From the NCBI GenBank assembly GCA_965246995.1, contig OZ252008.1, positions 64,993 through 128,992 on the forward strand: a DNA stretch of 64,000 nucleotides, in the 5' to 3' direction. The stretch comes from Vicinamibacterales bacterium (GTDB lineage Bacteria; Acidobacteriota; Vicinamibacteria; Vicinamibacterales; UBA8438). The notes under the pieces were generated by a model that worked only from the letters and a program-made list of their open reading frames with translations, ran no database searches and was not told where the DNA came from. Every line of letters begins with the position of its first letter. Within the stretch, counting starts at the first letter, position 1. The position numbers and the translations under genes were made by a program. Of the stretch, positions 18,058 through 63,940 are shown in pieces.

Positions 18058-18089
18058 GAAACATGCGACATATCACGTGTGACGTGACA

Positions 18090-28836: not shown

Positions 28837-29307
28837 ATGAAGTGTCTGCTGCTCGGTCTCGGACTCGTTCTCGCTCTGGTCACGCCGGCGTTCGCCCAGG
28901 GTCCGGCCGCGACGGTCGCCGACCTCGCGTGGATGACGGGCAACTACCAGGGCGACACCGGCAACGGGACGCTCGAGGAAAACTGGGCGGAGCCGGACGG
29001 CGGTTCCATTGCGTCGCTCGTCCGGTCGACGGCGGGTGGAGCCACCAACATGATCGAGCTCATCGTCGTGGAAGAGACGGGCAATTCGCTGACACTGCGC
29101 CTCAAGCAGTGGGATCCGGGCATGAAGCCGCGGGCCGACGGCTTCCAGGTGATGGAGCTGATCGAGATCGGCGACAAGAAGGTGCGCTTCACGAACACGG
29201 GTGAGGGCGGATTGCAGCAGCTCGGCTACAGCCTCGTCGGCGATCAGTTCACCATCTCCGTCAAGACGGCCCAGGGTGAATTCGACATTCCCCTGACCCG
29301 GCAATAG
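28837..29307 (+). CDS. Small secreted protein of unknown function (DUF6265-like by recollection)
   Basis: The signal peptide is MKCLLLGLGLVLALVTPAFAQG, followed by a ~135-aa beta-rich domain (LAWMTGNYQGD...LEENWAEPDGGSI...LTLRLKQWD...). The family name is from memory only. Confidence 0.45.
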   Translation: MKCLLLGLGLVLALVTPAFAQGPAATVADLAWMTGNYQGDTGNGTLEENWAEPDGGSIASLVRSTAGGATNMIELIVVEETGNSLTLRLKQWDPGMKPRADGFQVMELIEIGDKKVRFTNTGEGGLQQLGYSLVGDQFTISVKTAQGEFDIPLTRQ

Positions 29308-29333
29308 CCAGACTGTCGAAAGGACCACAACGG

Positions 29334-34018: not shown

Positions 34019-34107
34019 GATGGGTCCATTCTAGGCGCTTGCGCCGTAGAAGTTTCGCGCCAGCGAAACTTCCAACGCGCCCGCAAGGGCGCGCTAGCGG
34101 GGCACTC

Positions 34108-36167
34108 TCACGGCTCGACGGTGATCTCACCGACCGCCCACGGATGCTCCGTGCAGTGGTAAACGAACGTGCCCGGCTCGTCGAAGGTCACGACTCCCCA
34201 CGTCGCCGGGAGAAGGGCGCCGGTGGTCCAGCTCCCGTCGCGCGCCGCCACGGTGTGCGGCATCTCGCCATTGTTGACGAACCGGACGCGCGCCCCGGCC
34301 GTCACCAGGGAGCGCACCGGGTTGAACGCGTGCTCGTCAATGGCATAGCGCCGGCCGCCCACGGACCAGGAGGGGTTCTCCATGAGCGTCGCCGTCTCGA
34401 TCTCGTCGGTCGCGCGCGGGGCGGGGCCGGACGGTGCGAGGTCCGCCCAGGGATCCGCCGGCGCCTCGCCGCGTGCGGCGACGCCGCCGCCGAGGGCGAA
34501 CGCCCACAGCTCGCGACCCATCGTAATCGCGATGAACTGCTCGCCGTCGAGCTCGTACGCCGCGGCGGGCCCCGGCCGCACCCGGGCACCGGTTTGTGTC
34601 GTCTGGAAGGCCCAGACGCGCGCGCCGGTCCGCGCGTTGTAGGCCTCGACCTGGCCGCCGGGCGAGCCGCGGAACATCAGGCCGCCCGCGGTCGTGAGGG
34701 GCCGCTCGTGCCGAGCAGCGGACTCGGCACCTCCTGCTTCCACACCACCCGGTTGGTCTGCGGGTCGACGGCGGCGATGATGCCGATGGCGTCCGGCAGG
34801 CTGATGTGGCCACCGCTCGGGCGCGACAGCCACGGATCCGCGAAACGGCGGGCGCGCCCGACGTGGGCGTGCCCCTGCGCATAGATGTACCCGGTCCCCG
34901 GGCTGAAGGACATCGGCGTAACCCGCACGCGCGGAATCGGCGCGCCGGGCGCCACGACGGTGTGGCCGTCCGCCGAGGGCGGCGTGTACGTACTGCAGCT
35001 CAACTCGAACGGGGGCGGCACCCGGTCGCGCCAGAACGTGCAGTCCGGCAGGATGCTCTCGGCTCCGACGGGAAACGGCTGGGTCGGCGCGGTGTGCAGG
35101 AACGCGTCCTGGGGCACCTCTCGCTCTTCGATCGGCACGAGCGGCTCGCCGGTCTCGCGATCGAACAGGAAGAGGTAGCCGTCCGCCCGCATCGCGGCCA
35201 GCGCCTTGCGCGGCGCGCCGTCCACTTGCGCGTCGTAGAGCAGCAACGGGGTTGCGATGTCCGCGTCCCAGACGTCGTGCCGGACCACCTGGTAGTGCCA
35301 CCGCCGCTCACCGGTTTCCATGTCGAGCGCGAGCACGGAAGCGGTGAACAGGTTGTCGCCGGCCCGGATCTCGCCCCCGAACATCGGTACCGGGTTCCCG
35401 GTCGAGAAATAGACCAGACCCAGCTCGGGATCGACGGTTCCGACCAGCCAGACACCCCCGCCGCCGAGCTGCCACGTCTCGTTATCCTGCGGCCAGGTAT
35501 CGTGGCCGAACTCTCCCGGCCGCGGCACGACGAAGAACGTCCACTGCGTCTCGCCGGTCGCCGCATCCAGCGCGATGACGCGCCCCTGCCCGCCGCTGTC
35601 ACCGTTGGCCAATCCGACGAAGACCTGCCCGCGCGCATACATCGGCGCCGTGGTGACGCCCTCGCCCTCCCGTCGCGGCTCGCTGCCGACGGAAGTGATC
35701 CACGCCAGTTCCCCGGTGTCCAGGTGAAGCGCGATCACCTGCGCGCTGCGGAGGCCGGCGAAGACGAGGCCCTCTCCCAGCCCGACGCCCTGCCAGGACG
35801 GGACCATCAGCGGGTCGTCGCTCGGCGGCTGCCAGCGCCAGACCGTCTCGCCGGTCCGGGCGTCGATGGCGAACACGTTGGCCCCGGCCGTCAGGTAGAG
35901 GACGCCATCCTGCATCACTGGCGTCGCCCGCGATGCCGCGCCGCCCGGAAGGGCCATGACCCAGGCGCCGCCCAGCCGGCCGACGGTATCCAGGGTGATG
36001 TCATCGAGGGTCGTGTAGCGTGAGCTTGACCAGTTCCCTCCGACCAGCGGCCAGGCGCTGGCCGGATAGCCACTGCCGCCCTCCGGATCCTGTCCCTGCA
36101 CGCCGGGCGGCAGGACCGCGATTCCGGCCGTCAGCGCGACGGCAAGTCCCCACTGAAGTCCACGCAT
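34108..36167 (-). pseudogene. PQQ dehydrogenase::cupredoxin fusion, paralogue B, interrupted by a 1-nt frameshift
   Basis: The N-terminal 496 codons (ORF 34677..36167) and the C-terminal part (tail of ORF 34108..35301) are colinear with paralogues A and C. The frames switch at the G4 run 34698-34701; one extra G/C would restore ...GTSGPLTTAGGLMFRG.... The C-terminus reads NNGEMPHTVAARDG...YHCTEHPWAVGEITVEP. Confidence 0.8.
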
Positions 36168-36255
36168 GACGCCCTCCTGACAGTCGAGTGTAGCCCGGGA
36201 CCGGTATAATCGACGGCAACTCGTCCACCGGCGCCTTTCGAAGCGGGGTACTCAG

Positions 36256-37325: not shown

Positions 37326-38387
37326 ATGAATCGTCTTTCCTGTGTGCATGTCGGGTTGGGCGCGGTGGTCTTGGCGGCATGCGTCATCCTGGCGCCGGTC
37401 GCGGGGTGGTCCCAGACGGCGGCGGAGGAGGATTGGGTATCGCCCCGGACACCGTGGGGCGACCCTGATGTCGGCGGCGTCTGGAACAGCTCCACCGTAA
37501 CGCCGCTCCAGCGTCCGGAGGAGCAGGCCGGCAAGGAATTCCTGACCGAGGAGGAAGCGGCGGCCATCGAGCAGGGCGTCGTCGACGCCAACGCCCGCGC
37601 GAACGCGCCCAGTGTCGTTCGCACCGAACCCCTGCCGGTAGGTGGCAACGTCGGCGGCTACAACAGCTTCTGGCTGGATCGGGGGACGACGGTCGTCCCG
37701 ACGCGGCGCACGTCGCTCGTCATCGACCCGCCGAACGGGCGCCTGCCCGCGCTCACGCCGGAGGCCGAGGCGTACATCACGTCGCCGGAGCGGCAGCGGC
37801 TGAAGGCGGTGCGGGAGGGGATGGTGCCGGCCGACTCTTACGAGCAGTTCGACTATGGCGACCGCTGCATCTGGTATCGCGGCGTCCCTTCGCTGCCCAC
37901 CGCCTACAACAACAACTACCACCTCGTTCAGACCGAGGATGTCATCGCGATCGTGCAGGAGCACATCCACGACGTCCGCTTCATTCACCTCGACGGCCGC
38001 CCCGCGATCGACGATCGCATCAGTCAGTTCGGCGGTCATTCGCGCGGACACTGGGAGGGCGACACGCTGGTTGTCGAGACGACCCACTTCGGCGACCGGG
38101 CCTACCTGTTCTCGTCCGGCCCGGGACCGCAGGGCGGCACGAACTGGGATCTCAGCCCGGCCCTGCGGGTCGTGGAGCGATTCACCCGCGTGGGACCCCG
38201 GACGCTCGACTACGAGTTCACGGTGGACGATCCGAACGTCTGGACCCGCCCGTGGACCGGGTCCTCACCGTGGGCCCGCGGCGACGGACCGATGTTCGAG
38301 TACGCGTGCCACGAGGGCAACTACGGGATGCAGAACATCCTCGCCGGCTCGCGCGCCGAGGAGGCGAGGGTCAGGGATCGACGGTAA
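37326..38387 (+). CDS. Secreted protein of unknown function, FEYACHEGN motif (paralogue 2)
   Basis: ATG at 37326 gives MNRLSCVHVGLGAVVLAACVILAP.... The protein is colinear with 36256..37257 over its whole length. Its 3' end overlaps the convergent PQQ paralogue C by 17 nt. Confidence 0.55.
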   Translation: MNRLSCVHVGLGAVVLAACVILAPVAGWSQTAAEEDWVSPRTPWGDPDVGGVWNSSTVTPLQRPEEQAGKEFLTEEEAAAIEQGVVDANARANAPSVVRTEPLPVGGNVGGYNSFWLDRGTTVVPTRRTSLVIDPPNGRLPALTPEAEAYITSPERQRLKAVREGMVPADSYEQFDYGDRCIWYRGVPSLPTAYNNNYHLVQTEDVIAIVQEHIHDVRFIHLDGRPAIDDRISQFGGHSRGHWEGDTLVVETTHFGDRAYLFSSGPGPQGGTNWDLSPALRVVERFTRVGPRTLDYEFTVDDPNVWTRPWTGSSPWARGDGPMFEYACHEGNYGMQNILAGSRAEEARVRDRR

Positions 38388-40452
38388 TCTCGGCGATCGC
38401 CCAGGGGTGCTCCTCGCAGTGGTAGAGGAACGTGCCTGCCTGGTCGAACGTGACGTAGACCGACATCGCCGGCGCCAGCGTGCCGGTCGTCCAGCTCCCG
38501 TCGCGCGCCGCCACCGTATGGGCGACCTCGCCATTGTTCTGGAACCGCAGCCGGTCACCGGCCGCCACCCGCGTGCGCACCGGGTTGAATGCATGCTCGT
38601 TCAGCGCGTTGCGCCGGCCGCCGTACGACCAGGAGGGATTCTCGACCAGCGTGCCGGTCTCCACCAGGTCCGTCGCGCGCGGCGGTGGACCGATCCAGCG
38701 GACCAGATCGTCAATCTCCCCCGGGACCGCCGGTCCCCGCGCCGGAACCTCCCCGTCGAGCGCGAATGCCCAGAGCTCGCGTTCGAACGACGCCGCGATG
38801 TACTGCCGGCCGTCCACCTCGAAGGACATAGCCGGGCCGGGACGCTGCCGGGTCCGCGGCGCGCCCGCCTGGAAGCCCCAGACCTGCTCCCCGGTCCGCG
38901 CGTCGTAGGCCTCGATCAGACCGTCCGCCGCCGCCCAGAACATCAGTCCGGTCGCGGTCAGTAGCGGGCCGCTGGTCGAGAGGCGCGCGCCACGGAACTC
39001 GTTCTTCCAGACCACGCGGCCGGTCCGCCCGTCGACGGCGGCCAGGATGCCAACGGACTCGGGGAGCGTCAGCCGGAGGTAGCCGCTCGCCCGGTTGTCC
39101 GAGATCCAGGGATCCTCGAAGCGGAACGCGCGGCCGACATGCCCGCGCCCCTGGGCGTAGATGTAGCCGGTCTGCGGCGAGAACGCCATCGGCGTGACGC
39201 GCACCATCGGGATCGGCACGCTCGGCGCGACCACCGCATGTTGATCGATTCCCGGCGGCGTGTAGGCGCTGCAGTTGAGCGTGAACGGCGGCGGCACCCG
39301 ATCTCGCCAGAACGAACAGTCCGGCAGGATGCTCTCGACACCGACCGGGAACGGCTGCGTCGCCGCGGTCAGGAGGCGGTCGTCCTGCGGCACCGGCCGG
39401 TCCTCGAGCTCCACGATCGGTTCGCCCGTCTCGCGGTTGAAGAGGAAGAGATAGCCGTCGGCGCGAATCGCGGCGAGCGCCGGCACCGGCTCGCCGTCTA
39501 TCTCGGTGTCGTACAGCAGGACCGGTGTCGCGATGTCGGCGTCCCAGATGTCGTGGCGCACGACCTGGTAGTGCCAGCGGCGCTCGCCCGTCTCCATATC
39601 GAGCGCGAGAACCGATGCCGTGAACAGATTGTCGCCCGCCCGGATCTCGCCGCCGTACATCGGAACCGGATTGCCGGTCGAGAAATAGACCATGCCGAGG
39701 TCGGGATCGACCGTCCCGACCAGCCAGACGCCGCCGCCCCCCACCTGCCAGATGTCGGAATCCTGCGGCCAGGTGTCATGGCCGACCTCGCCGGGGCGGG
39801 GCACCACGAAGAAGGTCCAGAGGACTTCGCCGGTGCGCGCATCGAGGGCGTGGACCCGTCCCTGTCCCCCGCTGTCGCCGTTCGCGAGGCCGACGAACAC
39901 CTTGCCGCGCGCGTAGATCGGCGCCGTGGTGACCGTCTCGCCTTCCGCCTGCGGAACGCTGCCTACCGGGGTCGCCCAGACCAGCTCCCCCGTCTCCTGA
40001 TCGAGCGCGGCCACTTCCGCGCTCCGCAGTCCGATGAATACGTGGCCGTCGCCGAGGCCAACGCCCTGCCAGGACGGCACGCGCTGCGACGCGGGGTCCT
40101 CCGCCTGCCAGCGCCAGATCGGCTCGCCGGAGCGCGCGTCGAGGGCAAAGACGTTTGCACCCCCGGGCATATAGATGACACCGTCCTGCACGACGGGCGT
40201 CGCGCGCGACGAAACGCCGCCCGGAAACTCGGCCACCCAGGCGCCGCCCAGCCGGTCGATGGTGTCGGGGGCGATCTGGTCGAGCGTCGTATAGCGGGAA
40301 CTGGAGGTGTTCCCGCCCGCAAGCGGCCAGTCGGCAACCGGATAGCCCTGACCCGGTTCCGGCGCCTGTCCGACCAGGCCCGCCGTCAACGCGAAGACCC
40401 CCGCTACAACCACCGGAATTGCTATCCCGAATCGAAGGTGTGATCTGCTCAT
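38371..40452 (-). CDS. PQQ-type dehydrogenase fused to a C-terminal amicyanin-like cupredoxin domain (paralogue C)
   Basis: 693 aa, colinear with paralogue A (GGNTSSSRYTTLDQI, VVQDGVIYMPGGANVFALDARSGEPIWRW, HYQVVRHDIWDAD ...). The C-terminus reads RLRFQNNGEVAHTVAARDG...GTFLYHCEEHPWAIAEITVDP. Confidence 0.8.
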   Translation of the reverse strand: MSRSHLRFGIAIPVVVAGVFALTAGLVGQAPEPGQGYPVADWPLAGGNTSSSRYTTLDQIAPDTIDRLGGAWVAEFPGGVSSRATPVVQDGVIYMPGGANVFALDARSGEPIWRWQAEDPASQRVPSWQGVGLGDGHVFIGLRSAEVAALDQETGELVWATPVGSVPQAEGETVTTAPIYARGKVFVGLANGDSGGQGRVHALDARTGEVLWTFFVVPRPGEVGHDTWPQDSDIWQVGGGGVWLVGTVDPDLGMVYFSTGNPVPMYGGEIRAGDNLFTASVLALDMETGERRWHYQVVRHDIWDADIATPVLLYDTEIDGEPVPALAAIRADGYLFLFNRETGEPIVELEDRPVPQDDRLLTAATQPFPVGVESILPDCSFWRDRVPPPFTLNCSAYTPPGIDQHAVVAPSVPIPMVRVTPMAFSPQTGYIYAQGRGHVGRAFRFEDPWISDNRASGYLRLTLPESVGILAAVDGRTGRVVWKNEFRGARLSTSGPLLTATGLMFWAAADGLIEAYDARTGEQVWGFQAGAPRTRQRPGPAMSFEVDGRQYIAASFERELWAFALDGEVPARGPAVPGEIDDLVRWIGPPPRATDLVETGTLVENPSWSYGGRRNALNEHAFNPVRTRVAAGDRLRFQNNGEVAHTVAARDGSWTTGTLAPAMSVYVTFDQAGTFLYHCEEHPWAIAEITVDP

Positions 40453-40722
40453 CGCGGCGGCCTCCTGCGGGTGCGCGGCGCTCCGTTCCGGCGTCGCGAT
40501 CCGCGAGTGTAGCAGGTAGCAGGCGCGTCGTTTCCAACCGCGGGGAGAGCGGTTGCGTCGAGCGGCCGGGGCCGGATAGAATTCGCCCGGGCTGTGTGAT
40601 TTAGTGCGGCCCGAGACAGGGATGGCCCCTCAGGCATCGGTCGTGACGACCGGCGCCGTCTGGATTTCCAGCGGACCGAGGGGTCCGGACAAGCATGAAG
40701 CTGTACGAAAGGAGTCACGACG

Positions 40723-42567
40723 TTGGCTGACGTGACGACGACGGAAACCGCCTCCCCCGCGGCAGGCGGGAGCGAAGGACACGACGCCGCACACGGGCAC
40801 GGTGAGCACGAGCATCACGAGCTCGGCTTCTGGCAGACCTACGTCTTCTCGGTCGATCACAAGGTAATCGGCATCCAGTACGCCGTGACCGGCCTGCTCT
40901 TCCTGTTGTTCGGCTTCACGCTGATGGTGGTGATGCGCTGGCAGATCGCCTATCCCGGCGAGCCGATTCCCTTGATCGGCACCTGGCTGGGCGCGGAACG
41001 GGCGCCGGACGGCATCATGTTGCCGGAGTTCTACAACCAGTTGGGCGCGATGCACGGCACCATCATGGTGTTCCTCGGCGTCGTTCCCCTCGCCGTCGGC
41101 GGCTTCGGCAACTTCGTCCTGCCGCTGCAAATCGGAGCGCCCGACATGGCGTTCCCGAAGCTCAACATGGTGAGCTACTGGAGCTTCTTCGTGGGCGGCG
41201 TCGTCATGTTCGCCAGCTTCTTCGTGCCGGGCGGAGCCGCCAACTCCGGCTGGACCTCGTATGCGCCCCTGTCCGTGTTCGCCACGACCGGGCAAACGAT
41301 GTGGCTTGCGGGGATGATGTTCCTGATCACGTCGTCACTGCTCGGCTCGGTCAACTTCATCGTCACGACGATTCAGTTGCGCGCACCGGGGCTTTCGTTC
41401 ATGCGGCTGCCGTACTTCGTCTGGGCGCAGCTCGTCACCGCGTTCCTGCTGCTGCTCGCCTTTCCTCCGCTCGAGGCAGCCGGCGTACTGCAGTTGATGG
41501 ACCGGGTGGCAGGCACCAGCTTCTTCATGCCGAGCGGCCTCGTCTACGCCGACTCCCCGGTCGAGGCGAGCGGTGGCGGCAGTGTGCTGCTCTGGCAGCA
41601 CCTCTTCTGGTTCCTGGCGCACCCGGAGGTGTACGTCCTTATCCTCCCGGCCCTCGGCATCGTCACCGATATCGTGGCCAACAACACGCGCAAGCCGATC
41701 TGGGGTTACAGCGTGCTGGTCTACTCGACCGTCTTCCTGGGCTTCATGTCGTTCATCGTCTGGGCGCACCACATGTTCCTGACCGGCATGGGAACGACGA
41801 TGAGCTCATTCTTCCAGACGACCACGATGATCATCTCGATCCCGTCGGTCATCATCCTGTCGTCGCTCTTCATCTCGCTCTACGGAGGATCGATCCGGTT
41901 CACCGTGCCGATGCTCTTCGCCCTGGCTTTCCTGCCGATGTTCGGGATCGGCGGACTGACCGGGCTTCCACTCGGCCTCTCCGCACCGGACATCCACCTG
42001 CACGACACCTACTACGTCATCGGGCACTTCCACTACGTCGTGGCGCCGGGGACGCTGATGGCGCTGTTCGGGGGCGTCTACTACTGGTTCCCGAAGGCGA
42101 CGGGCCGCAAGATGAACGACCTGCTGGGCCGCATTCATTTCTGGGGTTCGTTCATCGCGATCAACGTCGTCTTCATGCCGATGTTCTACCAGGGTTTGTC
42201 CGGGATGAACCGCCGGATGTACGACGGCGGCGCGCAGTACACGATGAACGCGGACGTGCTGTGGCTGAACGAGGTGATCAGCATCGCGGCGTGGGTGCTG
42301 GGCCTCTTCCAGTTGCCGTTCATCTACAACTTCTTGAACAGCATCAAGCGCGGGGAGAAGGTAGGCGACAACCCGTGGCAGGCGACCACGCTCGAATGGC
42401 AGGCGCCGTCGCCACCGCCGCACGGGAACTTCGCCACGCCGCCGCGGGCGTACCGCGGCCCGTACGAGTACAGCGTGCCGGGCGCGGCCAGTGACTTCAT
42501 GATGCAGGGCGAGGCGGATCCCCCCAGCTCGGGGACCCCGGCGGCGGCCAAGCCGGCCGGCGCCTGA
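40723..42567 (+). CDS. ctaD: Cytochrome c oxidase subunit I (A-type haem-copper oxidase)
   Basis: TTG at 40723 lies 8 nt after AAGGAG. Motifs include DHKVIGIQY, QLGAMHGTIMVFL, WQHLFWFLAHPEVYVLILPALG (CuB His and the cross-linked Tyr, with the D-channel Glu in HPEVY), VWAHHMF and YYVIGHFHYV. Confidence 0.95.
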   Translation: MADVTTTETASPAAGGSEGHDAAHGHGEHEHHELGFWQTYVFSVDHKVIGIQYAVTGLLFLLFGFTLMVVMRWQIAYPGEPIPLIGTWLGAERAPDGIMLPEFYNQLGAMHGTIMVFLGVVPLAVGGFGNFVLPLQIGAPDMAFPKLNMVSYWSFFVGGVVMFASFFVPGGAANSGWTSYAPLSVFATTGQTMWLAGMMFLITSSLLGSVNFIVTTIQLRAPGLSFMRLPYFVWAQLVTAFLLLLAFPPLEAAGVLQLMDRVAGTSFFMPSGLVYADSPVEASGGGSVLLWQHLFWFLAHPEVYVLILPALGIVTDIVANNTRKPIWGYSVLVYSTVFLGFMSFIVWAHHMFLTGMGTTMSSFFQTTTMIISIPSVIILSSLFISLYGGSIRFTVPMLFALAFLPMFGIGGLTGLPLGLSAPDIHLHDTYYVIGHFHYVVAPGTLMALFGGVYYWFPKATGRKMNDLLGRIHFWGSFIAINVVFMPMFYQGLSGMNRRMYDGGAQYTMNADVLWLNEVISIAAWVLGLFQLPFIYNFLNSIKRGEKVGDNPWQATTLEWQAPSPPPHGNFATPPRAYRGPYEYSVPGAASDFMMQGEADPPSSGTPAAAKPAGA

Positions 42568-42618
42568 CGAGCGGACAAATCGAACGGATGAACGAAGGAC
42601 AGGGCAGAACGTCGAGAC

Positions 42619-43215
42619 ATGGATATTCCATACATCGTTGATGAACGGCCGGATACCGGGCTGACGAACGTCAAGCTGGGCATCTGGCTCTTCCTCGCGT
42701 CGGAGGTGATGCTCTTCGGCGCGCTCTTTTCTTCCTATGTGCTGCTGCGCCTGATGGCGCCGGAGGGCACGTGGCCATTCGGCGTGGACGTGCTGAACGT
42801 GCCACTCGGGACGTTCAACACCGCGGTGCTGATCGGGTCGAGCGTCACGATGGTGATGGCCTACGCGTCGCTCAAGATGGACGACCTGGGCGGTTACAAG
42901 AAGTACATGGGGACGACGATCGGCTTGTCGCTCCTCTTCATGGTGGTCAAGGCGTTCGAGTACAGCCACGAGTTCGACATCGGAAACTTCCCGTGGACGA
43001 GCACCTACCTTGCCATCTACTTCACGATGACCGGACTGCACGCGATGCACATCATCGCCGGAGTGATCGTCAACACCTACCTCCTGCTGCCCGGCTCGAA
43101 GATGTGGTACACGAACAAGGAGCAGTTCACGAACCGGATCGAAGCCGCCGGCCTCTACTGGCACTTCGTCGATCTGGTATGGATCTTCCTGTTCCCGGTG
43201 CTCTACCTGCTGTAG
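42619..43215 (+). CDS. ctaE: Cytochrome c oxidase subunit III (short, five-helix form)
   Basis: [19 protein letters not shown]..., [18 protein letters not shown] and [23 protein letters not shown] are the hallmark subunit III blocks. Confidence 0.9.
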
Positions 43216-43239
43216 CTCGCGGAGGACGACAAGCGAACC

Positions 43240-43584
43240 ATGAGTGAAGACGTTCAGGCGCACATTCGGATATACATGAAGGTGGCCGGCGCGCTCGGCG
43301 TGCTGACCGCGGTGACCGTGGCAATCTCCTACATCGACTTCTGGGGCGTGCCGATCGCCGTTATCGTGGCCCTGGTCATCGCGGCGACGAAGGGCTCGCT
43401 GGTGGCCAGTTTCTTCATGCACCTCATCGGCGAGCGGAAGATGATCTACTGGTCGCTGCTCCTGACCGTCGTTTTCTTCCTGGGGCTCATTTTCCTGCCG
43501 CTGCTCGGCCATGCCGACAAGCTCGGCGAGTACTACACCGTGCCGAACGCGAACGCGCCGGCGCCGGCTGCGCCCGCCCACTGA
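43240..43584 (+). CDS. Oxidase subunit IV, prokaryotic COX4/CyoD-like
   Basis: 114 aa with three hydrophobic helices. IRIYMKVAGALGVLTAVTV...AVIVALVIAATKGSLVASFFMHL matches the pattern of bacterial subunit IV (K..LV...FMHL). Its position after subunit III also fits. Confidence 0.65.
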   Translation: MSEDVQAHIRIYMKVAGALGVLTAVTVAISYIDFWGVPIAVIVALVIAATKGSLVASFFMHLIGERKMIYWSLLLTVVFFLGLIFLPLLGHADKLGEYYTVPNANAPAPAAPAH

Positions 43585-43610
43585 GGAACGCGAAACCGAC
43601 AGAGGCCACC

Positions 43611-43820
43611 ATGTCGCTGCGATCCATTCATCTCGTCTTCATCGGGGCGTCCATACTGCTGGCGGCGCTCACTACCTGGTGGGGTACCGCGATGTTCCTG
43701 AGCGGCCGCGGCGGCAGCGGATACCTGCTGTTCGCCGGCGGGTCGCTCGCGGCGGTGATCGGGATGACGGCCTACGCGGTGCTGTTCGTTCGGAAGACGC
43801 GCGCGATCGGAATGCGGTGA
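43611..43820 (+). CDS. Small two-helix membrane protein, unknown function, inside the oxidase operon
   Basis: 69 aa: MSLRSIHLVFIGASILLAALTTWWGTAMF...LLFAGGSLAAVIGMTAYAVLFV. It has an AGAGG-type RBS and lies in the tight operon spacing between subunit IV and the next small ORF. Confidence 0.5.
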   Translation: MSLRSIHLVFIGASILLAALTTWWGTAMFLSGRGGSGYLLFAGGSLAAVIGMTAYAVLFVRKTRAIGMR

Positions 43821-43840
43821 CGGTCGCGGAGGGTTCTGCC

Positions 43841-44119
43841 ATGAAGAGAATCTCGACAGCTACGATGGCGGCGGCGCTCGTCATGCTCGCGCCCGCGGTG
43901 GCGTTGGCCTGTCCGATCTGCTTCGGCGCCGATCCCGACTCTGCGGAAGCGCAGAGCCTGAACTGGGCCGTCTTCACACTGCTCGGCGTTACCGGTGGTG
44001 TGCTGAGCGGCTTCGTCGGATTCATGTTTCACCTGTTAAAACGGTCCCGGCAGGCGCTCGGGAACGAGGACGCATTCGACGCCACGGACCATCGTGGCGA
44101 TGCGGGAGGAGTTTCGTAG
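43841..44119 (+). CDS. Small exported/anchored protein with CPICFG motif, unknown function, inside the oxidase operon
   Basis: ATG at 43841 follows GGAGGG. The sequence is MKRISTATMAAALVMLAPAVALA-CPICFGADPDSAEAQSLNWAVFTLLGVTGGVLSGFVGFMF... (leader, CxxC, one C-terminal helix). The stop TAG abuts the ATG of subunit II (TAGATG), indicating translational coupling. Confidence 0.6.
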   Translation: MKRISTATMAAALVMLAPAVALACPICFGADPDSAEAQSLNWAVFTLLGVTGGVLSGFVGFMFHLLKRSRQALGNEDAFDATDHRGDAGGVS

Positions 44120-44866
44120 ATGGGCGAGTTGCTTGGACTGCCGATTCAGGCGTCGGCTCACGCCGGCGAGATCGACGAGATGATCATCCTCATCCACTAT
44201 CTGATGGCCGTGCTGTTCATCGGATGGGGAGCGTTCTACGTCTACACGCTGTTCCGGTTCCGCGCGAGCGCGAACCCGACCGCCAACTACAAGGGCGTGA
44301 CCAGTCACACTTCCAGCTACCTGGAGTGGGCGGTGGCGGCCATCGAGGCAGTCCTGCTGGTCGGATTCGCCATCCCGGCATGGGCGCACCGCGTCAACGA
44401 CATCCCGCCGACCGGGGAAGCGACCGTCGTCAACATGATCGGGAAGCAGTTCGAGTGGATCTCGCACTACCCCGGCGCGGACGGCCGGTTCGGGCAGCGC
44501 GACCTCAGTCTGATCACCCCTACCAACGTGATCGGGCTCGATCGGAGCAGTGCGAACGCCGCCGACGATATCATGACTGTCAACCAGCTGAACATGCCGG
44601 TCGACAAGCCGATCATCGTCTACCTGTCATCGCAGGATGTCATCCACAGCTTTGGCATCACCGAGATGCGCGTGAGGCAGGATGCAATCCCCGGCATCCA
44701 GGTACCGGTCTATTGGGTGCCGACGCAGACGGGCGAGTACGAAGTGAATTGCTCGCAGCTCTGCGGTCTCGGCCACTACCGCATGCGCGGCTTTGCCGAG
44801 GTGATGAGCCAGGCCGACTACGACGCGTGGCTCGCCGAAGAAGCTTCGTTCCTCTCCGGTAACTGA
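44120..44866 (+). CDS. ctaC: Cytochrome c oxidase subunit II with complete CuA site and no cytochrome c domain
   Basis: Two N-terminal helices are followed by a cupredoxin domain: DVIHSFGITEMRVRQDAIPG...YEVNCSQLCGLGHYRMRG. This gives CuA ligands H, C, C, H, M, with Gln in the CxExC position as in ba3-type CNQYCGLGHQNM. There is no CxxCH anywhere in the 248 aa. Confidence 0.85.
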   Translation: MGELLGLPIQASAHAGEIDEMIILIHYLMAVLFIGWGAFYVYTLFRFRASANPTANYKGVTSHTSSYLEWAVAAIEAVLLVGFAIPAWAHRVNDIPPTGEATVVNMIGKQFEWISHYPGADGRFGQRDLSLITPTNVIGLDRSSANAADDIMTVNQLNMPVDKPIIVYLSSQDVIHSFGITEMRVRQDAIPGIQVPVYWVPTQTGEYEVNCSQLCGLGHYRMRGFAEVMSQADYDAWLAEEASFLSGN

Positions 44867-45268: not shown

Positions 45269-46339
45269 CTACCGTCCGGCGGCGGCGAGTTCCTCTCGGA
45301 TGATCTGCTCGAAGGTCTCGTACGGCGCGGCGCCCAGCACCGCGCGGCCATTGAGGAACAACGTGGGCGTGGATGACACGCCGTAGTCGTTTCCGATCTC
45401 CATGTCGCGCTCGACGGTGGCGGTGTGGCGTCCGCTGTCGAGGCACGCGGCGAAGGCTTCGGTGTCCAGTTCCAGGTTCTCGGCGTAGGCGTGCAGTTCG
45501 TCAACGCTGAGTGCACCCTGATTGGCAAACATCGTGTCGTGCAGCTCCCAGAACCGGTCCTGCTCGTGCGCGCAGTTGCCCGCCTCCGCCGCCTTGAACG
45601 CGTTCGGATGGCTCGGCAACGGGAAATCCTTGTAGATGAAACGGATCTGGCCGGTGAACTCCTCGAGCAGCCGGTCGACCGTCTCGGTGGCGCGCTGGCA
45701 GAACGGACAATCGAAGTCGGAGAACTCGACAATCTCCACCGGCGCGTCCGCCGGGCCGCGCGCCGGATCCTCGGCGAGCGTTTCGACCATCTGTCGCGGC
45801 GGTTCGAGCATCACCATGACGTCGCCCGCCGCCTCGCGCAACTCGTTCGTGAAAGCGTGCAGCGCCTGCATCGGGCGCTGCTGCTGGATGGCGGCAACGA
45901 TTTCCGGCCGCAGCTCTTCCAGGGTCTGATTCGGGAAGCGATCCTTGTTCCGATCCCAGATCTCCTGGATCTCCTCCTCGGTGACCTCCAGAGTCCGGCT
46001 CGGAAGCTCCGCGATGAGCAGTTCCTCCCGTGTCATGCCACGGGCCGCCGCTTCACGGTCGATCAGTCGGTCGCCCAGGAGAATGTCGAGCGCGCGGCGT
46101 CGCGTCTCGTACACCTCCTGCAGCATCCGCAGGCGAGACGCGGCGTCGTTCGCCCGCCAGGCGTCCTCCACCTCGGCGAACGTCACCTCTATGTCGCCGA
46201 TGCGCGCCACCACGTCGTCGTCGGCCTGCTGCGCGGATACCTCGGCATTGCCGGACGTCAGCAACAGCGCCGTCGCCATCACGGCAGTAAGCGCCGGACC
46301 CCGCGAACGGCGGATCATCCTTCTCTCTGCAAGGGTCAT
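45269..46339 (-). CDS. DsbA-family thiol:disulfide oxidoreductase with N-terminal SurA-N-like chaperone domain
   Basis: ATG at 46339 gives a signal peptide, then a helical domain (VARIGDIEVTFAEVEDAW...) and a thioredoxin fold: PVEIVEFSDFDCPFCQRA...FIYKDFPLPSHPNAF..AAEAGNCA...FWELHD...GVSSTPTLFLNG. Confidence 0.8.
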   Translation of the reverse strand: MTLAERRMIRRSRGPALTAVMATALLLTSGNAEVSAQQADDDVVARIGDIEVTFAEVEDAWRANDAASRLRMLQEVYETRRRALDILLGDRLIDREAAARGMTREELLIAELPSRTLEVTEEEIQEIWDRNKDRFPNQTLEELRPEIVAAIQQQRPMQALHAFTNELREAAGDVMVMLEPPRQMVETLAEDPARGPADAPVEIVEFSDFDCPFCQRATETVDRLLEEFTGQIRFIYKDFPLPSHPNAFKAAEAGNCAHEQDRFWELHDTMFANQGALSVDELHAYAENLELDTEAFAACLDSGRHTATVERDMEIGNDYGVSSTPTLFLNGRAVLGAAPYETFEQIIREELAAAGR

Positions 46340-48397: not shown

Positions 48398-50755
48398 TTA
48401 CAACCCGACGCGTCGGAGACGCAGCGCGTTCCCGATCACCGAGAGTGAACTCATCGTCATCGCCGCGCTCGCCCAGATCGGGCTGATCAGCAACCCGATG
48501 ACCGGATAGAGCACGCCCGCCGCCACCGGTACTCCCACGCCGTTGTAGATGAACGCGAGAAACAGGTTCTGCCGGATGTTCCGCATCGTCGCACGGCTCA
48601 GCCGCCGCGCCCGGACGATGCCGCGCAGGTCCCCCCGGACCAGCGTGACCCCGGCGCTCTCCATGGCGACATCGGTCCCGGTTCCCATGGCGATCCCGAC
48701 CGCCGCCTCCGCCAGCGCCGGCGCGTCGTTGATCCCATCCCCCGCCATCGCGACGACACGTCCGGCTGCCTGCTCATCCGCCACAATCTGCCGCTTGTCG
48801 GCTGGCAGCACATCGGCGCGGACGTCGCCCGGGTCAATTCCCACTTGTGCCGCCACCGCGCCGGCCGTCGCGTGGTTGTCTCCCGTCGCCATGACGACAC
48901 GGATCCCCTCCGCACGCAGCATCCCAATCGCTTCGACGGCCGAGTCCTTGACCGGATCGACGACGCCGATGATTCCTGCGGCTTGATCATCCACCGCCAC
49001 GAACACGACGGTCTCGCCGCGACCGCGCGCCGGCTCTGCATCGGCTGTCAGCGCCGCAACGTCGACGCCGCGGTCCGCGAGGAACGCCGCCGTTCCGATG
49101 GCCACCCGTCTGCCCTCCACGCGCCCGGTCACGCCGCGGCCGGGCTGATAGTCGAAGTCGGTCGCCGTCGCCGCCGCCCCTCCGCGCGGCTCCGCCGCCT
49201 TGACGATGGCCGCCGCGAGCGGATGCTCGCTGGTCCGTTCCAGACCGGCCGCCAGCCGGACCAGTTCGTCGCCGTCGAACGGTCCCGCGACCGTCTGCAC
49301 CTTCGGTCGTCCTTCCGTGAGCGTTCCGGTCTTGTCAACGATGAGCGTGTTGACCCGCTCCAGCGTCTGCAACGCCTCGGCGTCGCGGATCAGCACGCCG
49401 TCGGTGGCGCCGCGGCCCGTGCCGACCATGATCGCCATCGGCGTGGCGAGGCCAAGCGCACAGGGACAAGCGATGATCAGGACGGCGACGGCGCTCAACA
49501 GCGCGAAAGCGAGGCGCGGTTCCGGACCGGCGACGGCCCAGGCGACGAACGCGGCGATCGCGACCGTGACGACAGCAGGCACGAAGATGCCTGCCACCCG
49601 GTCGGCGACACTCTGAATCGGCGCCCGGCTGCGCTGGGCGTCGGACACCATCTGGACGATGCGCGAGAGCAACGTGTCGCTGCCGACCCGTTCGGCGCGC
49701 ATCACCAGGCTCCCGGTGCCATTCATGGTGGCGCCCACCACGTTTGAGCCCGCGTCCTTCTCGACCGGGATCGGTTCACCGCTGATCATCGATTCGTCGA
49801 CCGCACTTCGCCCCCCGGTGACGACGCCGTCCACCGGGATCCGCTCTCCCGGCCGCACCCGCAGGAGGTCGCCGACCTGGACCTCGGCGAGCGGCACCTC
49901 CGCGTCCCCAGTCGCCATGACCCGGTGCGCGACGGGCGGTGCGAGGTCGAGCAGGGCGCGCAGCGCGGCGCCGGTCCGGTGACGTGCGCGCAGTTCGAGC
50001 ACCTGGCCCAGCAGCACCAGAACCACGATCACGACCGCGGTGTCGAAGTACGGCTCCACGCCACCGTTCATCTGGAAACCGGCGGGAAACACGCCGGGGA
50101 CGATGGTGGCGGCCGCGCTGTAGACGAACGCGGTCCCGACGCCCAGGGCGATCAGCGTGAACATGTTCGGACTACGGTTCACCACCGATGTCCAGGCGCG
50201 CTCGAAGAAGGGACGGCCCGCCCAGACGACGACCGGCGTTGCGCAAGCGAACTGCAGCCAGTTCGAAACCGCGCGGCTGATCGGCAGCCCGCCGGCGCCC
50301 GCCAGCATCTCGGTCATCGCCAGGGCGAACACCGGAAAACCGATCGCCGCCGCGATCCAGAACCGGCGTCGCATGTCGATCAGCTCGAGATTCGGTCCTT
50401 CGTCCGCCGTCACCATGAGCGGCTGGAGCGCCATGCCGCAACTGGGGCAGGGCACCGGTTCGGTCTCGCGGACGTCGGGACACATCGGGCAGACGTACAC
50501 CGTGCCCGGAGGCGCTGGCGCTGCCTCGACGGCTGCGTGGTCGCCGTGCATCGCTGCATGATCGCCATGCATCGCCGGCGCGGCAGCGGCGGTCTCGGCC
50601 GCATGCTTCAGGAAGGCCTCGGGATCCTGCTGGAACGCAGCGTGGCAGCCGCCGCCGCAGAAGTGATACGTCGTGCCGGCGTAGTCGAAGGAGAACCGGG
50701 ACTTGTCAGGGTCCACCGTCATGCCGCAGACGGGGTCCCGCGTAGCGACAGGCAT
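48398..50755 (-). CDS. copA: Copper-translocating P1B-type ATPase with N-terminal TRASH/YHS and zinc-ribbon metal-binding domains
   Basis: ATG at 50755 gives [41 protein letters not shown] (TRASH/YHS), a duplicated AMHGDHA motif, and [24 protein letters not shown]. The ATPase core follows: [13 protein letters not shown] (CPC), [23 protein letters not shown]. The listed 867-aa ORF has a spurious 82-codon extension. Confidence 0.9.
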
Positions 50756-50787: not shown

Positions 50788-51459
50788 CTACGCGCCGAGC
50801 GCCTGCGCGACGAACGTCGCTTCGGGGAGCGCGCCGACGATTTCGATCGTGTCGTCCACCAACGTCTTCGGCACGCCGGTGACCCGGTACAACTGCGCCA
50901 GGTCCGGGAACTCGATCGCCTGGATCACCGTCGTGGTGATGCGCGGACTCGCCGCCGCCAGACGCATGGCCAGGCTGACCGCCTGGGGACAGAACCGTCA
51001 AGTGGGGGTGACGAACACGCGCAGGTTGACGTCGCGGTCGAGCGCCTCGACCGTGTCGAGCGTCTCGTCGCTAAGCGCCGCCTTGCCGGCCGCCACCGCG
51101 GCGGCTCCGCCTGCCGCCACGAGTTCGATCGCTTCGATGACCGATTCCAGCTCGAAGCCGGCCGGCACTCCGTAGTAGCGAATGCCCAAGTCCCCCACGC
51201 CGCCGTCGTCTCCGGGGCCCTCGACCGCAAGCGCGGGCGCCCGGTCGACGCCGTACTTCGCCGCCTCGTCCTTGTCCAGCGCGAGGTTGTGCTCCACGAC
51301 GGTCAACTGATCCGACATTGCCGCGAGCCGGTCGACCACCTGCCGCGCCAACAGGCAACCGTCGCAATCGAAAGTCTGCGTGAAGAAGACCAGACGGACC
51401 GGCGCCTGGAGAGCGGCGAGACGAGACTCGAGACGGGTGGACGCGCCGCCGAAATCCAT
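50788..51459 (-). CDS. Two-unit thioredoxin-fold protein (PDO / AhpF-N-terminal / glutaredoxin-like), predicted selenoprotein with in-frame UGA at 50998-51000
   Basis: Unit 1 reads [22 protein letters not shown]...[14 protein letters not shown]. The ORF track stops at TGA, but the same frame continues for 69 codons to TAG (50788-50790): ...NLRVFVTPT-[TGA][49 protein letters not shown]...[13 protein letters not shown]. This is the canonical second unit (TPTCPxCP...FPDLA..Y.V..VP) with TGA in place of the first Cys. Confidence 0.6.
50970..50986 (-). promoter_or_regulatory. Putative bacterial SECIS hairpin
   Basis: The mRNA reads UGA-CGGUUCUGUCC-CCAGGC-GGUCA-GCCUGG. This is a 6-bp GC-rich stem starting 12 nt after the UGA, with an apical loop GGUCA (GGUC at +18..+21). 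As far as I recall, this is comparable in spacing and loop content to the E. coli fdhF SECIS. Confidence 0.5.
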
Positions 51460-51978
51460 TTACTTGAACAGGTCGTCGAACGCCTGCCGCGCGCTCGCTG
51501 GGTCGGGCGAGGCCTCCGACGGTTGTGACGACGACGACGCTGACGACGACGCATCCGAAGAGACTGCAGGCGCTGGCGTGGCTCGGGAGTGTGTTTCCCG
51601 TTCGACCGTTACACGCGCTTCGAAGAAGGTGCAGTCGTTACGCCCATCCTTCGGTGATACTCGTTTCGGGATCGGCCGCGCGCACTCCAGCGTTTGACTG
51701 GTGTCGAACCAGGTGCACTGTGCGCAACTGTGGAGATCGGCGCCGCACCCCTCACACTGCGTATCGAACCGGATAAAGGCGGAATCCAGCGCGTGCCCGC
51801 AACGGGCGCACTTCATCACTTCCTGGAACGCGGGCATGTTCATCGCGCGCGGCTCGCGCGATCCATAGCCACGCCTCGGGCGGCCATCACCCTTGGGACG
51901 ACGATCACGGTCCAGAACTCGGCCCGGACGGTCGCGTTCGTCTTCCAGGTATCCGCGTTGTTCGTACTTCCTCAACAT
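51460..51978 (-). CDS. Cys-rich zinc-ribbon protein of unknown function
   Basis: 172 aa. A basic N-terminus (MLRKYEQRGYLEDERDRPGR...) is followed by KCARCGHALD...QCEGCGADLHSCAQCTWFD...ECARP...DCTFFE and a Ser/Ala/Pro-rich tail. Its stop abuts the start of the predicted selenoprotein gene (51460/51459), so they are likely co-transcribed. Confidence 0.5.
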   Translation of the reverse strand: MLRKYEQRGYLEDERDRPGRVLDRDRRPKGDGRPRRGYGSREPRAMNMPAFQEVMKCARCGHALDSAFIRFDTQCEGCGADLHSCAQCTWFDTSQTLECARPIPKRVSPKDGRNDCTFFEARVTVERETHSRATPAPAVSSDASSSASSSSQPSEASPDPASARQAFDDLFK

Positions 51979-52102: not shown

Positions 52103-53089
52103 TTACCATTCTTCCTTCTCCGTATCGAGGCCCGCTTGTCCCGCCGCCGCCTCTACGTCCGCCATTCCCAGAGCGTTCCCGCAGATGAGCAGGACCGTCC
52201 GACCCGCCGGCATCCGGCCGTGCAGGCCCTCGGCGGTCAGGTGGCGCGGAAGTACGGCCGGCTCGGCTCGCGCCACGGCCGGCTCGGCCCGATCGATACC
52301 GCTTCCTGCCGCCCGCGCCGCGTCCAGCGCCAGCGCCTCGGCGGCCGGCAACCCGAGGACGTGGCGGAGGATGTTGCTGGCACGACCGACACCCACCAGG
52401 CCAGCGGCGCGGTCGTGCCTTCCCGGTCGGCTGACAGTCGGCACGTAGACGAAATCGAACGCGCGCGCCCGTTCGATCTCCAGCAATTCCCCGTGGTACG
52501 CCAGTTCATCATGTGTCCGGTTGCCGTGGATCAGCGTGAAACGGCGATCGTCGCGCCGCCCCGTCACGGCGGCGTGATGCAACTGCTTCACCATTGAGAC
52601 AAAGGGCGCCAGCCCCGTCCCCGTCCCGACCATCACCACATGGTCATACCCGTCGGCGCGTTCCGCCAGCGTGAAAGTCCCCGCGATGCGATCGACGTAT
52701 ACCAGTTGCCGATCCTCATCCGTGTCCATCCGCAGCAGCATCGAACTGAGCCGCCCCGACACGCCCTCGCGGCTGATTGTCAGAACGACATAGAACTCCA
52801 GATAGCCGCAATCCTGTTCCCAGGGCGCCGATGCGATGGAGTAGGCGCGGACTATCCGTCCGGTGCGCGGCGTCCCGTCTGCGTCGGTGTCCGGCACGTA
52901 CCCTGGCCGCCGGGCCGGCCCGGCGCCGGCCCGCTTCGTGAGCGGCACATCGTCGCGCCCGAGTGCAATGTACTGCCCGGCTACCGACGGTGGAAACGCT
53001 TGCCCCAGCTCCGGCGCGAGGCGAAAGATCGCGAGGATGGGCGAAAGATCGCGCTTGTAGATTATCGTCCCGGTGCGCCGTGCTGCCAT
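52103..53089 (-). CDS. Ferredoxin-NADP+ reductase-type FAD/NAD(P)-binding oxidoreductase
   Basis: ATG at 53089. Motifs are GQYIALG, RAYSIAS (the RxYS FAD motif), VMVGTGTGLAPFVSM (NAD(P) binding) and LICGN. The sequence contains a short in-frame direct repeat (RAEPAVARAEPAV). Confidence 0.7.
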   Translation of the reverse strand: MAARRTGTIIYKRDLSPILAIFRLAPELGQAFPPSVAGQYIALGRDDVPLTKRAGAGPARRPGYVPDTDADGTPRTGRIVRAYSIASAPWEQDCGYLEFYVVLTISREGVSGRLSSMLLRMDTDEDRQLVYVDRIAGTFTLAERADGYDHVVMVGTGTGLAPFVSMVKQLHHAAVTGRRDDRRFTLIHGNRTHDELAYHGELLEIERARAFDFVYVPTVSRPGRHDRAAGLVGVGRASNILRHVLGLPAAEALALDAARAAGSGIDRAEPAVARAEPAVLPRHLTAEGLHGRMPAGRTVLLICGNALGMADVEAAAGQAGLDTEKEEW

Positions 53090-62333: not shown

Positions 62334-63940
62334 CCTAGGAGTCTGCGCCGTAGAAAATACGACAATTGCGGCAGACCTGATCTTGACGGAAGGACGTGAT
62401 GTCGACGACGTTTCGCCGCTACGCCCCGGACCAATCGTTGCTGTTGCCACCAGATTTGCAGGCGTGGTTGCCGGAGGGCCACTTGGCGCACCATGTCAGC
62501 GACTTGGTGGACGGTCTTGATCTGACGGCATTTTACGCACCGTATGAGGGTGACGGTCGGCGCAACGCGCCGTATGAGCCGCGGATGATGTTGAAGGTGC
62601 TGATCTACGCGTATGCGACGGGGGTGTTTTCGTCGCGGGGGATCGCGAGGAAGCTGGAAGAGGACGTGGCTTTCCGAGTGCTGGCGGCGGGCAATTTTCC
62701 GCAACACCGTACGGTGTGCGAGTTTCGTCGTCGGCATCTGGAGGACTTCAAGAAGCTGTTCGTGGAGGTGGTTCGTCTGGCGCGGGAGTTGGGGGTGGCG
62801 AGCTTCGGGAAGCTGTCGATAGACGGGACGAAGGTGCGGGCGAACGCGAGCAAACGCAAGGCGATGAGCTACGGTCGGATGCAGGAGGAGGAGCGTCGCT
62901 TGGTCGGCGAGATTGACGCGCTGCTGGCGTCGGCGGACGACGCTGACGCGGCCGAGGATGCGCGGTTGGGGGCGGCGGTGCGCGGCGACGAGCTGCCGAC
63001 GGAGTTGCGGCGGCGGGAGGATCGTCTGGCGGCGATCCGGGCGGCGAAGGCGCGTCTGGAGGCGGCGCAGCGGGCGGCGGACGACGCGCGCGGGCGGCAG
63101 CCGGGCGAGGGTCGGAACCCGCAGGGCGGTCGGCCGTACAAGCGGGCGTATGGCGAGCCGGACGAGAAGGCGCAGAGCAACTTCACGGATCCGGACAGCA
63201 GGATCATGAAGACGAGCAACGAAGGGTTCCAGCAGTGCTACAACGCGCAGGTGGCGGTGGATGGTGACCACCAGTTGGTGGTGGCGACCGACGTGACGGC
63301 GAACGCGAGTGACCAGGGCGGGTTGCCGGCGCTGCTCGACGCGGTGTCGGAGACGTTCGACGCGCAGCCGGAGACGGTGCTGGCCGACGCCGGGTATTGC
63401 AACGAGCGGGACTTGGTGGACCTGGAGACGCGGGGCGTCAACGGGTATGTGGCGCCGGGGCGAGAGGGTAAGACGGCGACGACCAGCGACCCCAAGAAGC
63501 ATCCGGCGACGAGTCGCATGTCGGAGAAACTGGCGACGCGGGCGGGCCGGGCGGCGTATGCGGAACGCAAGTGGCTGTCGGAGGCCCCGCACGGCTGGAT
63601 CAAGCACGTGCTGGGATTCCGGCGCTTCAGCCTGCGGGGACTCGCCACGGCGGGCGGCGAGTGGGACTTGGTGTGCCTGGCGTTGAACGTCAAACGCCTT
63701 CAGCCCCTGATGGGGATGTGAAACGCGAGGTATGAAGCCGGCAACGGCCGCGCAGCGGTGCGAATCGTGGCCGCTGGCGAGCCCCGGGGCGCGTCGGAGC
63801 CGATTTTGCCGACCGTTTCGCCGGCCGCCGAGAATCGACCTCGCCCGCTGACCGGCGAGGTCGCCCCGACGCGGTGCGTCAGGTTGTGGGCCGACGGCCA
63901 ACTATCGTCCGGCGAATCTCCTACGGCGCAGACTCCTAGG
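62334..63940 (+). mobile_element. IS1182-family (IS5 superfamily) insertion sequence with perfect 20-bp terminal inverted repeats
   Basis: cctaggagtctgcgccgtag (62334-62353) is the exact reverse complement of ctacggcgcagactcctagg (63921-63940). A single transposase gene lies inside. The left end is 5 nt after the stop of the preceding gene. Confidence 0.85.
62396..63721 (+). CDS. IS1182-family DDE transposase
   Basis: FRRYAPDQSLLLPPDLQAWLPEGHLAHHVSDLVDGLDL..FY...GRRNAPYEPRMMLKVLIYAYATGVFSSRGIARKLEEDVAFRVLAAGNFPQHRTVCEFRRRHL...SIDGTKVRANAS...coiled-coil insert...ADAGYCNE...ERKWLSEAPHGWIKHVLGFRRFSLRGL is the typical IS1182 organisation. Confidence 0.9.
   Translation: MMSTTFRRYAPDQSLLLPPDLQAWLPEGHLAHHVSDLVDGLDLTAFYAPYEGDGRRNAPYEPRMMLKVLIYAYATGVFSSRGIARKLEEDVAFRVLAAGNFPQHRTVCEFRRRHLEDFKKLFVEVVRLARELGVASFGKLSIDGTKVRANASKRKAMSYGRMQEEERRLVGEIDALLASADDADAAEDARLGAAVRGDELPTELRRREDRLAAIRAAKARLEAAQRAADDARGRQPGEGRNPQGGRPYKRAYGEPDEKAQSNFTDPDSRIMKTSNEGFQQCYNAQVAVDGDHQLVVATDVTANASDQGGLPALLDAVSETFDAQPETVLADAGYCNERDLVDLETRGVNGYVAPGREGKTATTSDPKKHPATSRMSEKLATRAGRAAYAERKWLSEAPHGWIKHVLGFRRFSLRGLATAGGEWDLVCLALNVKRLQPLMGM

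Follow-up and report, generated by a model that had tools for sequence, protein, structure and literature searches.

A probable selenocysteine-recoded UGA in a two-unit protein disulfide oxidoreductase gene of Vicinamibacterales

The stretch of DNA considered here (the window) comprises 64,000 nucleotides of contig OZ252008.1 from a Vicinamibacterales bacterium, and its minus strand carries a gene for a protein disulfide oxidoreductase (PDO) that is probably read through an internal UGA with incorporation of selenocysteine (Sec). The gene lies between a gene for a zinc-ribbon-like protein and copA, all on the same strand (Table 1), which is the placement given in the first-pass annotation of the window. 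Its reading frame opens with an ATG at 51459 and runs for 153 codons to 51001, where it meets TGA (51000-50998); past this triplet, the same frame continues for 69 further codons and closes with TAG (50790-50788), again as had been described. The residues flanking the TGA read VFVTPT-[TGA]-RFCPQAV. Eleven codons past the TGA, there is an in-frame ATG (50967-50965), from which public gene callers start a separate 59-aa ‘Thioredoxin_3’ open reading frame (ORF). On comparative sequence evidence, the two parts are very probably a single Sec-recoded PDO gene with a 223-residue product and not two ORFs.

Table 1. Positions of the PDO gene, its elements and other features in the window
Feature	Position	Strand	Basis or remark
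Probable complete selenoprotein gene, two-unit PDO (TIGR02187 family)	50788..51459	-	223 codons + TAG; translation, profile, structure
UGA codon 154, probably read as Sec; first position of U-R-F-C	50998..51000	-	Cys column of homologues, TGA across species
Redox motif of the C-terminal unit, U154-R-F-C157	50989..51000	-	C157 and P158 invariant in 62 Sec-form species
Redox motif of the N-terminal unit, C32-D-G-C35	51355..51366	-	C32 and C35 invariant in homologue alignment
Putative SECIS hairpin, 6-bp stem CCAGGC/GCCUGG, loop GGUCA	50970..50986	-	Fold, bSECIS criteria, covariation
Zinc-ribbon-like gene, 172 aa, Cys-rich	51460..51978	-	Neighbour upstream in 79/80 species
copA, Cu-translocating P1B-type ATPase	48398..50755	-	TIGR01511 and Pfam YHS, HMBD, E1-E2_ATPase
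Gene for an FNR-like NAD(P)-binding flavoprotein, on the upstream side of the zinc-ribbon gene	52103..53089	-	PF00175 NAD_binding_1
PQQ-dehydrogenase-like paralogues	26669-28789, 29280-31079, 31835-34030, 34677-36251, 38371-40629		Sequence inspection

The profile and structure work was carried out on the 223-residue product, with U replaced by C for the profile search. The NCBIfam model TIGR02187.2 (‘PDO_seleno_TRX’) matches residues 8-221 with 208.4 bits, above its curated cutoff of 185 (E = 7e-62), covering profile positions 6-207 of 209, and the Pfam Thioredoxin_3 match (residues 145-220) extends across the TGA. The best solved relative is the PDO from Pyrococcus furiosus (1A8L), which aligns end to end with E = 2e-30 and places its VFVTPTCPYCP opposite VFVTPT[U]RFCP. 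An AlphaFold2 (AF2) model built from the family alignment has a pLDDT of 90.3 and a pTM of 0.87; in a Foldseek search, it gave TM scores of 0.82-0.83 to 2YWM, 2AYT, 1A8L, and 1J08 over about 225 columns, and 0.76-0.81 to AhpF N-terminal domains. In the model, U154-R-F-C157 is located between a strand (144-150) and a helix (157-170), in the canonical position of CxxC, and C32-D-G-C35 is likewise flanked by a strand (21-27) and a helix (35-47). Without translation of the 69 downstream codons, the second thioredoxin unit would be incomplete. As modeled, the protein is thus composed of two thioredoxin-fold units in one chain, of the PDO or AhpF-N-terminal-domain type, and the earlier description of the joined product as a complete two-unit protein of this kind agrees with both the profile score and the predicted PDO fold.

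The solved PDOs (1A8L; 1J08 from P. horikoshii; 2AYT and 2YWM from Aquifex aeolicus) share with the present protein the fold of two thioredoxin units, the CxxC-type motif in both of them, and the C-terminal context VFVTPTCxxCP. In them, the second motif (CPYC) has two Cys, whereas the present protein would have Sec as the first residue (URFC), and the identity is only about 31%. The AhpF N-terminal domain (1HYU, 1ZYN, 4O5Q) is similar in its tandem thioredoxin folds and in the redox-active CxxC of the second unit. However, AhpF carries this domain as a fusion to a flavoprotein resembling thioredoxin reductase, and CxxC is missing from the first unit of the domain, whereas the present protein stands alone and bears the motif in both units; the AhpF equivalog models score far under their cutoffs for it (51.7 against 502.9 and 85.3 against 687.65). 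No ahpC was seen near the PDO gene. No HMA domain was matched in the product by Pfam, the fold being a tandem thioredoxin and not that of the HMA/CopZ type. Inspection of the N-terminus reveals no evident signal peptide, which suggests a cytoplasmic location.

The orthologue scan, with one genome taken per species, provided 80 loci, of which 78 are labelled Vicinamibacterales, Vicinamibacteria, or Acidobacteria/Acidobacteriota and two otherwise. The column of U154 is occupied by TGA in 67 species and by TGC or TGT in 13, and TAA or TAG is found there in none; the TGA is kept down to about 50% protein identity. The zinc-ribbon gene in the same loci ends with TAG (44), TGA (26), or TAA (10), and the terminal stop of the PDO gene itself is TGA in 64 cases, TAG in 14, and TAA in one. 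Drift to TAA or TAG, as in the neighboring stops, would be expected of an ordinary terminator; since TGA is the only stop triplet met in column 154, it does not behave as one. The same column is marked in the protein database, where all 11 truncated homologues stop at ...VFVTPT, while all full-length ones (206-235 aa) go on with C-x-x-C-P. The closest database homologues (149-156 aa, 74-97% identity) and a 139-aa group with about 60% identity end in this way. An exhaustive profile search yielded 3659 representative clusters; the top 150 are mostly full-length and presumably Cys forms, and 4 of these 150 stop exactly at the U column. The alignment to full-length homologues, therefore, bears out the proposal that the TGA takes the place of the first Cys of their CxxC.

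At least 20 contigs, drawn from several independent assemblies, carry the exact 153-aa product; one of them, ERZ26694896 ctg118071, is 5.1 Mb long. The same TGA is found in a relative on a 4.29-Mb contig (OZ253543.1), the record name of which ends with ‘77.44x_c’, read as circular with about 77x coverage. Within the window, TGA terminates 17 of the 33 confident genes, which indicates the standard genetic code and rules out a reassigned one. A search for further in-frame TGA candidates in the window revealed only off-frame or antisense artefacts.

In the 67 TGA species, no stop interrupts the frame for about 71 codons beyond the TGA. The pairwise ratio of nonsynonymous to synonymous substitution rates (dN/dS) for codons +11 to +66 is 0.12-0.34, a constraint equal to that on the upstream part; the amino acids encoded past the TGA are strongly conserved, and the synonymous sites are variable. 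Among the 62 Sec-form species, C157 is invariant and encoded by TGT (47) or TGC (15), and P158 is invariant too. Because this Cys and Pro are invariant despite synonymous variation, the ten codons between the TGA and the ATG are most likely translated as well. The ATG chosen by gene callers corresponds to W, H, or Y in most relatives, and the called start differs between relatives; such a codon, not kept and replaced by varying called starts, argues against an independent small gene. The first-pass annotation had seen no plausible start within the 69 codons; the ATG at 50967-50965 contradicts this as worded, but the codon is not kept as a start in relatives. Judged by these substitution patterns, the downstream segment is translated and is under purifying selection.

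The 12th nucleotide past the UGA (i.e., after an 11-nt spacer) begins a hairpin with the 5′ arm CCAGGC at 50986-50981, the loop GGUCA at 50980-50976, the 3′ arm GCCUGG at 50975-50970, and a fold energy of -10.8 to -11.5 kcal/mol. Its properties were compared with the consensus for the bacterial Sec insertion sequence (SECIS) element, bSECIS (PMC13188914, Fig. 2A legend). The apical loop comprises 5 nt (3-9 nt in the model) and the upper stem 6 bp (4-16 bp); the required G in the first two loop positions is present as GG; the distance from the UGA to the apical loop is 17 nt (16-37 nt); and the free energy is about -11 kcal/mol (at most -7.5 kcal/mol). In the Sec-form species, entropy at third codon positions drops to 0-0.58 bits over codons +4 to +9, which form the hairpin, versus about 1.0-1.9 bits on either side. 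Among 59 distinct sequences, pairing holds for 97.2% of cells, a measure by which the registered structure lies above every slid register. Both sides have changed in three of the six pairs, a level reached by none of 500 shuffles; CCAAGC/GCUUGG in L029 and CCAGGU/ACCUGG in L039 (labels of individual orthologous loci) are examples of compensatory changes. The loop GGUCA is near-invariant, with positions G28 and U29 invariant, and other GGUCA-type hairpins following a TGA amount to only three off-frame matches in all loci. The SECIS-like hairpin proposed earlier is thereby upheld, both by its agreement with every item of the bSECIS model and by covariation.

Like the bSECIS element of the E. coli fdhF type, the present hairpin is situated in the coding sequence right after the UGA, has a small loop starting with GG, and resembles it in the distance to the loop and in an energy below the -7.5 kcal/mol limit. 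It differs in the short stem, with no lower helix evident, and in a sequence that is almost invariant over the whole order because the same bases encode the conserved peptide P-Q-A-V-S-L.

Sec insertion is inferred from the fact that TGA alone, together with a SelB-type hairpin, is kept at the catalytic Cys column over the whole order. According to the mechanism envisaged, the UGA at codon 154 would be decoded as Sec instead of stop, with the mRNA hairpin 11 nt past it acting as a bacterial SECIS element that recruits SelB-GTP-Sec-tRNA(Sec) to the ribosome. In the protein, the selenolate of U154 would serve as the attacking nucleophile of the second redox center on a substrate disulfide, and the thiol-disulfide exchange would proceed through a selenenylsulfide U154-C157, with C157 as the resolving residue. 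The other CxxC center would be that of unit 1 (C32-D-G-C35), and the zinc-ribbon protein is a possible substrate or partner. Such a generic PDO mechanism is the likeliest one for this protein.

Several observations weigh against Sec recoding or reduce the value of single pieces of evidence. ARAGORN detected no tRNA-Sec in the 64-kb window or in all 87 sequences, and tblastn with approximate E. coli SelA, SelB, and SelD query sequences revealed no selA, selB, or selD in the window or across 1.66 Mb of related loci. Because all these loci represent one and the same syntenic region, this negative result carries little weight in either direction. The folding of the 64-nt region is no better than that of its shuffles (z = 0.86), and in the window, with its GC content of 67%, a bSECIS-compliant hairpin follows 10.8% of the 1409 TGA trinucleotides. 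No Rfam family matched the hairpin either in a scan of the window at gathering thresholds or in a permissive scan of 50900-51060; to our knowledge, Rfam contains no bacterial SECIS model. Finally, by our own arithmetic, about 20% of random 69-codon stretches would be open at this GC content. It is the homology across the TGA and its conservation among species that make the observation significant, rather than the open frame or the hairpin alone.

The evidence for downstream translation fits equally well a Sec-independent read-through, in which a near-cognate tRNA (Trp or Cys), helped by the hairpin and the UGA-C context, would suppress UGA154 and give a selenium-free full-length protein. Most orthologues indeed have C after the UGA, and UGA-C is a leaky context in bacteria; the Sec machinery unseen in the window and in the syntenic loci is also in line with this explanation. 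It is nevertheless improbable: the recoded site is precisely the catalytic Cys of CxxC and is swapped among species only with TGC or TGT, Trp or Gly at the position of the nucleophile would inactivate the redox center, the hairpin fits the SelB-type bSECIS model down to the near-invariant GGUCA loop, and the PDO family already has recognized Sec members.

The locus might also contain two genes, as publicly annotated, namely one for a 153-aa N-terminal thioredoxin-like protein and another for a 48-59 aa Thioredoxin_3 protein made from an internal start, the two products possibly being non-covalent partners. Gene callers split the gene in this manner in every assembly examined, and the window has the ATG 11 codons past the TGA. 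This arrangement must be regarded as very improbable in view of the replacement of the ATG by W, H, or Y codons in most species with differing called starts in relatives, and of the codons ahead of it, which hold the invariant Cys and Pro with synonymous variation and hence are translated. Moreover, the small ORF would be left without any CxxC and without the first beta-strand of its fold, and the stop of a separate upstream gene would have drifted to TAA or TAG as in the neighboring genes. An error in sequencing or assembly, or a gene that has only recently become a pseudogene, is suggested by nothing beyond the very presence of a stop codon in a block of homology; the identical sequence on independently assembled contigs, the same TGA on the 4.29-Mb contig labelled with about 77x coverage, its presence in 67 species, and a downstream dN/dS well under 1 make such an artefact or decay extremely improbable. 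Thus, the earlier proposal that Sec, directed by the hairpin, replaces the first Cys of the C-terminal CxxC is supported by the alignment, by TGA in 67 of 80 species, by purifying selection, and by covariation.

The gene in the window is a further member of an already known selenoprotein family. “AhpF N-terminal domain homolog, TIGR02187, UxxC” has been listed as a predicted selenoprotein family, with ABB15282.1 from Carboxydothermus hydrogenoformans as an example and with a member in Symbiobacterium thermophilum; in 2006, only two Sec members of the family were reported, one from an anaerobic and one from a microaerophilic thermophile (PMC13188914, PMC9312934, PMC1794560). The NCBI name of the TIGR02187.2 model itself contains ‘seleno’. 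The C. hydrogenoformans and S. thermophilum proteins belong to the same NCBIfam family and have the same type of UxxC motif, and they differ in the host, which here belongs to Vicinamibacterales (Acidobacteriota); the comparison with ABB15282.1 concerns the family and the motif type.

In a midpoint-rooted neighbor-joining gene tree, which is to be read with caution, the Cys forms make up 4-5 patches nested in Sec clades; L057, L063, L069, L073, L083, L085, and L086 form a monophyletic Cys clade. From this sequence-based topology, the Sec form is apparently ancestral and has undergone 4-5 Sec-to-Cys reversions. The orthologues with TGT or TGC in L038 and L046 (~10391-10440) keep a degraded hairpin, GGCGGTCAGCC, with a shortened stem, and such a remnant is expected for Sec-to-Cys revertants (compare PMC1794560, Fig. 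4). The present family thus differs from the general trend reported for such families, which is from Cys to Sec (PMC1794560). Nothing relevant on selenoproteins of Vicinamibacterales was found in the literature searched. Three features appear to be undescribed in that literature: a Sec form dominating an Acidobacteriota order, the Cys patches nested in Sec clades, and the constant pairing of the PDO gene with the zinc-ribbon gene.

These results leave the understanding of Sec recoding itself unchanged; their value lies elsewhere. All public annotations inspected split the gene into a ‘hypothetical’ protein of 139-156 aa and a thioredoxin fragment of 48-59 aa, and the nearly invariant pattern TGA-N11-CCAGGCGGTCAGCCTGG would allow annotation repair across Vicinamibacterales. 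It is also implied that UGA is decoded as Sec in most members of this widespread Acidobacteriota order. The family would provide a case of thiol oxidoreductases with a dominant, apparently ancestral Sec form and with several reversions that keep SECIS remnants. In addition, the locus offers a lead to an uncharacterized Cys-rich family with more than 1000 members as a likely functional partner.

This Cys-rich family is represented by the zinc-ribbon-like protein, whose gene directly precedes the PDO gene in 79 of the 80 species; in the window, its TAA stop abuts the PDO ATG. The protein has no Pfam or NCBIfam match. Its homologues number more than 1000 and lack any Pfam domain, and those with a name in their source are all called ‘hypothetical protein’. 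The family invariants are eight Cys and one His, along with a conserved N-terminal RKYxQRGYQD and a C-terminal FDDLFK. Its predicted structure has a pLDDT of 57, which is too poor for a fold search. The gene has been left uncalled by gene callers in several assemblies (L001-L006). Among candidate partners of PDO, the adjacent zinc-ribbon protein is the most conserved one. The gene for the FNR-like flavoprotein adjoins the zinc-ribbon/PDO pair only in some relatives, often on the opposite strand; as an electron donor, this flavoprotein is possible by inference only.

On the other side of the PDO gene, copA starts 32 nt past the PDO stop in the window, and its product is matched by TIGR01511 with 588 bits (cutoff 397) and by the Pfam N-terminal domains YHS and HMBD and E1-E2_ATPase. 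It directly follows the PDO gene in 10 of the 80 species. In 37, it is downstream on the same strand at a distance of 0.4-5 kb, with a gene for an M61 peptidase with PDZ in between in the loci inspected; in 12, it lies on the opposite strand, about 5 kb upstream; in a further 12, it is not within at least 5 kb; and in nine, the contig is too short to place it. Genes for a DsbA-like lipoprotein and for an aa3 oxidase also belong to the conserved neighborhood. Membership of the PDO gene in a copA operon was considered as a conserved feature and rejected, given direct adjacency in only 10 of the 80 species. For the same reason, the earlier suggestion of a Sec-dependent redox step tied to copper export is weak. 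Since the neighborhood is conserved and the operon is not, a role of PDO in copper handling is speculative.

A broader idea is that the zinc-ribbon protein and Sec-PDO form a dedicated, order-wide, and ancestrally selenium-dependent redox module for copper handling or cytochrome-oxidase maturation, which might, for example, maintain in reduced form the zinc-ribbon protein or the Cys-rich N-terminus of CopA (YHS/HMBD), or bind Cu(I) via the selenolate. This idea seems rather unlikely. If true, it would describe an unusual family of thiol oxidoreductases, ancestrally and mostly Sec-containing, with Cys forms that arise by reversion.

The M61-PDZ gene encodes a secreted glycyl-aminopeptidase-like protein and is located directly after the PDO gene in L028 (10648-12528), L060 (10656-12614), and L012 (~10.7-12.5 kb). 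It precedes copA in L028 and L060 and is absent from the clade of the window. The DsbA-like lipoprotein (Thioredoxin_4) is encoded at 45269-46318 of the window on the minus strand; its score against NF041057, ‘Rcas_1661 family thioredoxin-like (seleno)lipoprotein’, is 119.9 against a cutoff of 190. It has CPFC here and Cys in all related loci checked, with no Sec forms among them. The genes of the aa3-type cytochrome c oxidase (COX1, COX3, COX4_pro, and COX2; 40699-44866) are near copA and the DsbA-like gene and are kept in many relatives; the presence of this operon in the window suggests an aerobic lifestyle.

Farther away in the window, sequence inspection distinguishes five paralogues similar to pyrroloquinoline quinone (PQQ) dehydrogenases between 26669 and 40629 (Table 1). 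At its C-terminus, the product of 34677-36251 falls about 200 residues short of its closest paralogues, and the gene may be truncated. Transposase-like ORFs are found at 8841-10886, 17539-18072, and 62387-63721. Near the left end, an ORF at 1544-5167 encodes a DNA-methyltransferase-like protein of 1208 aa and is possibly a restriction or defence gene.

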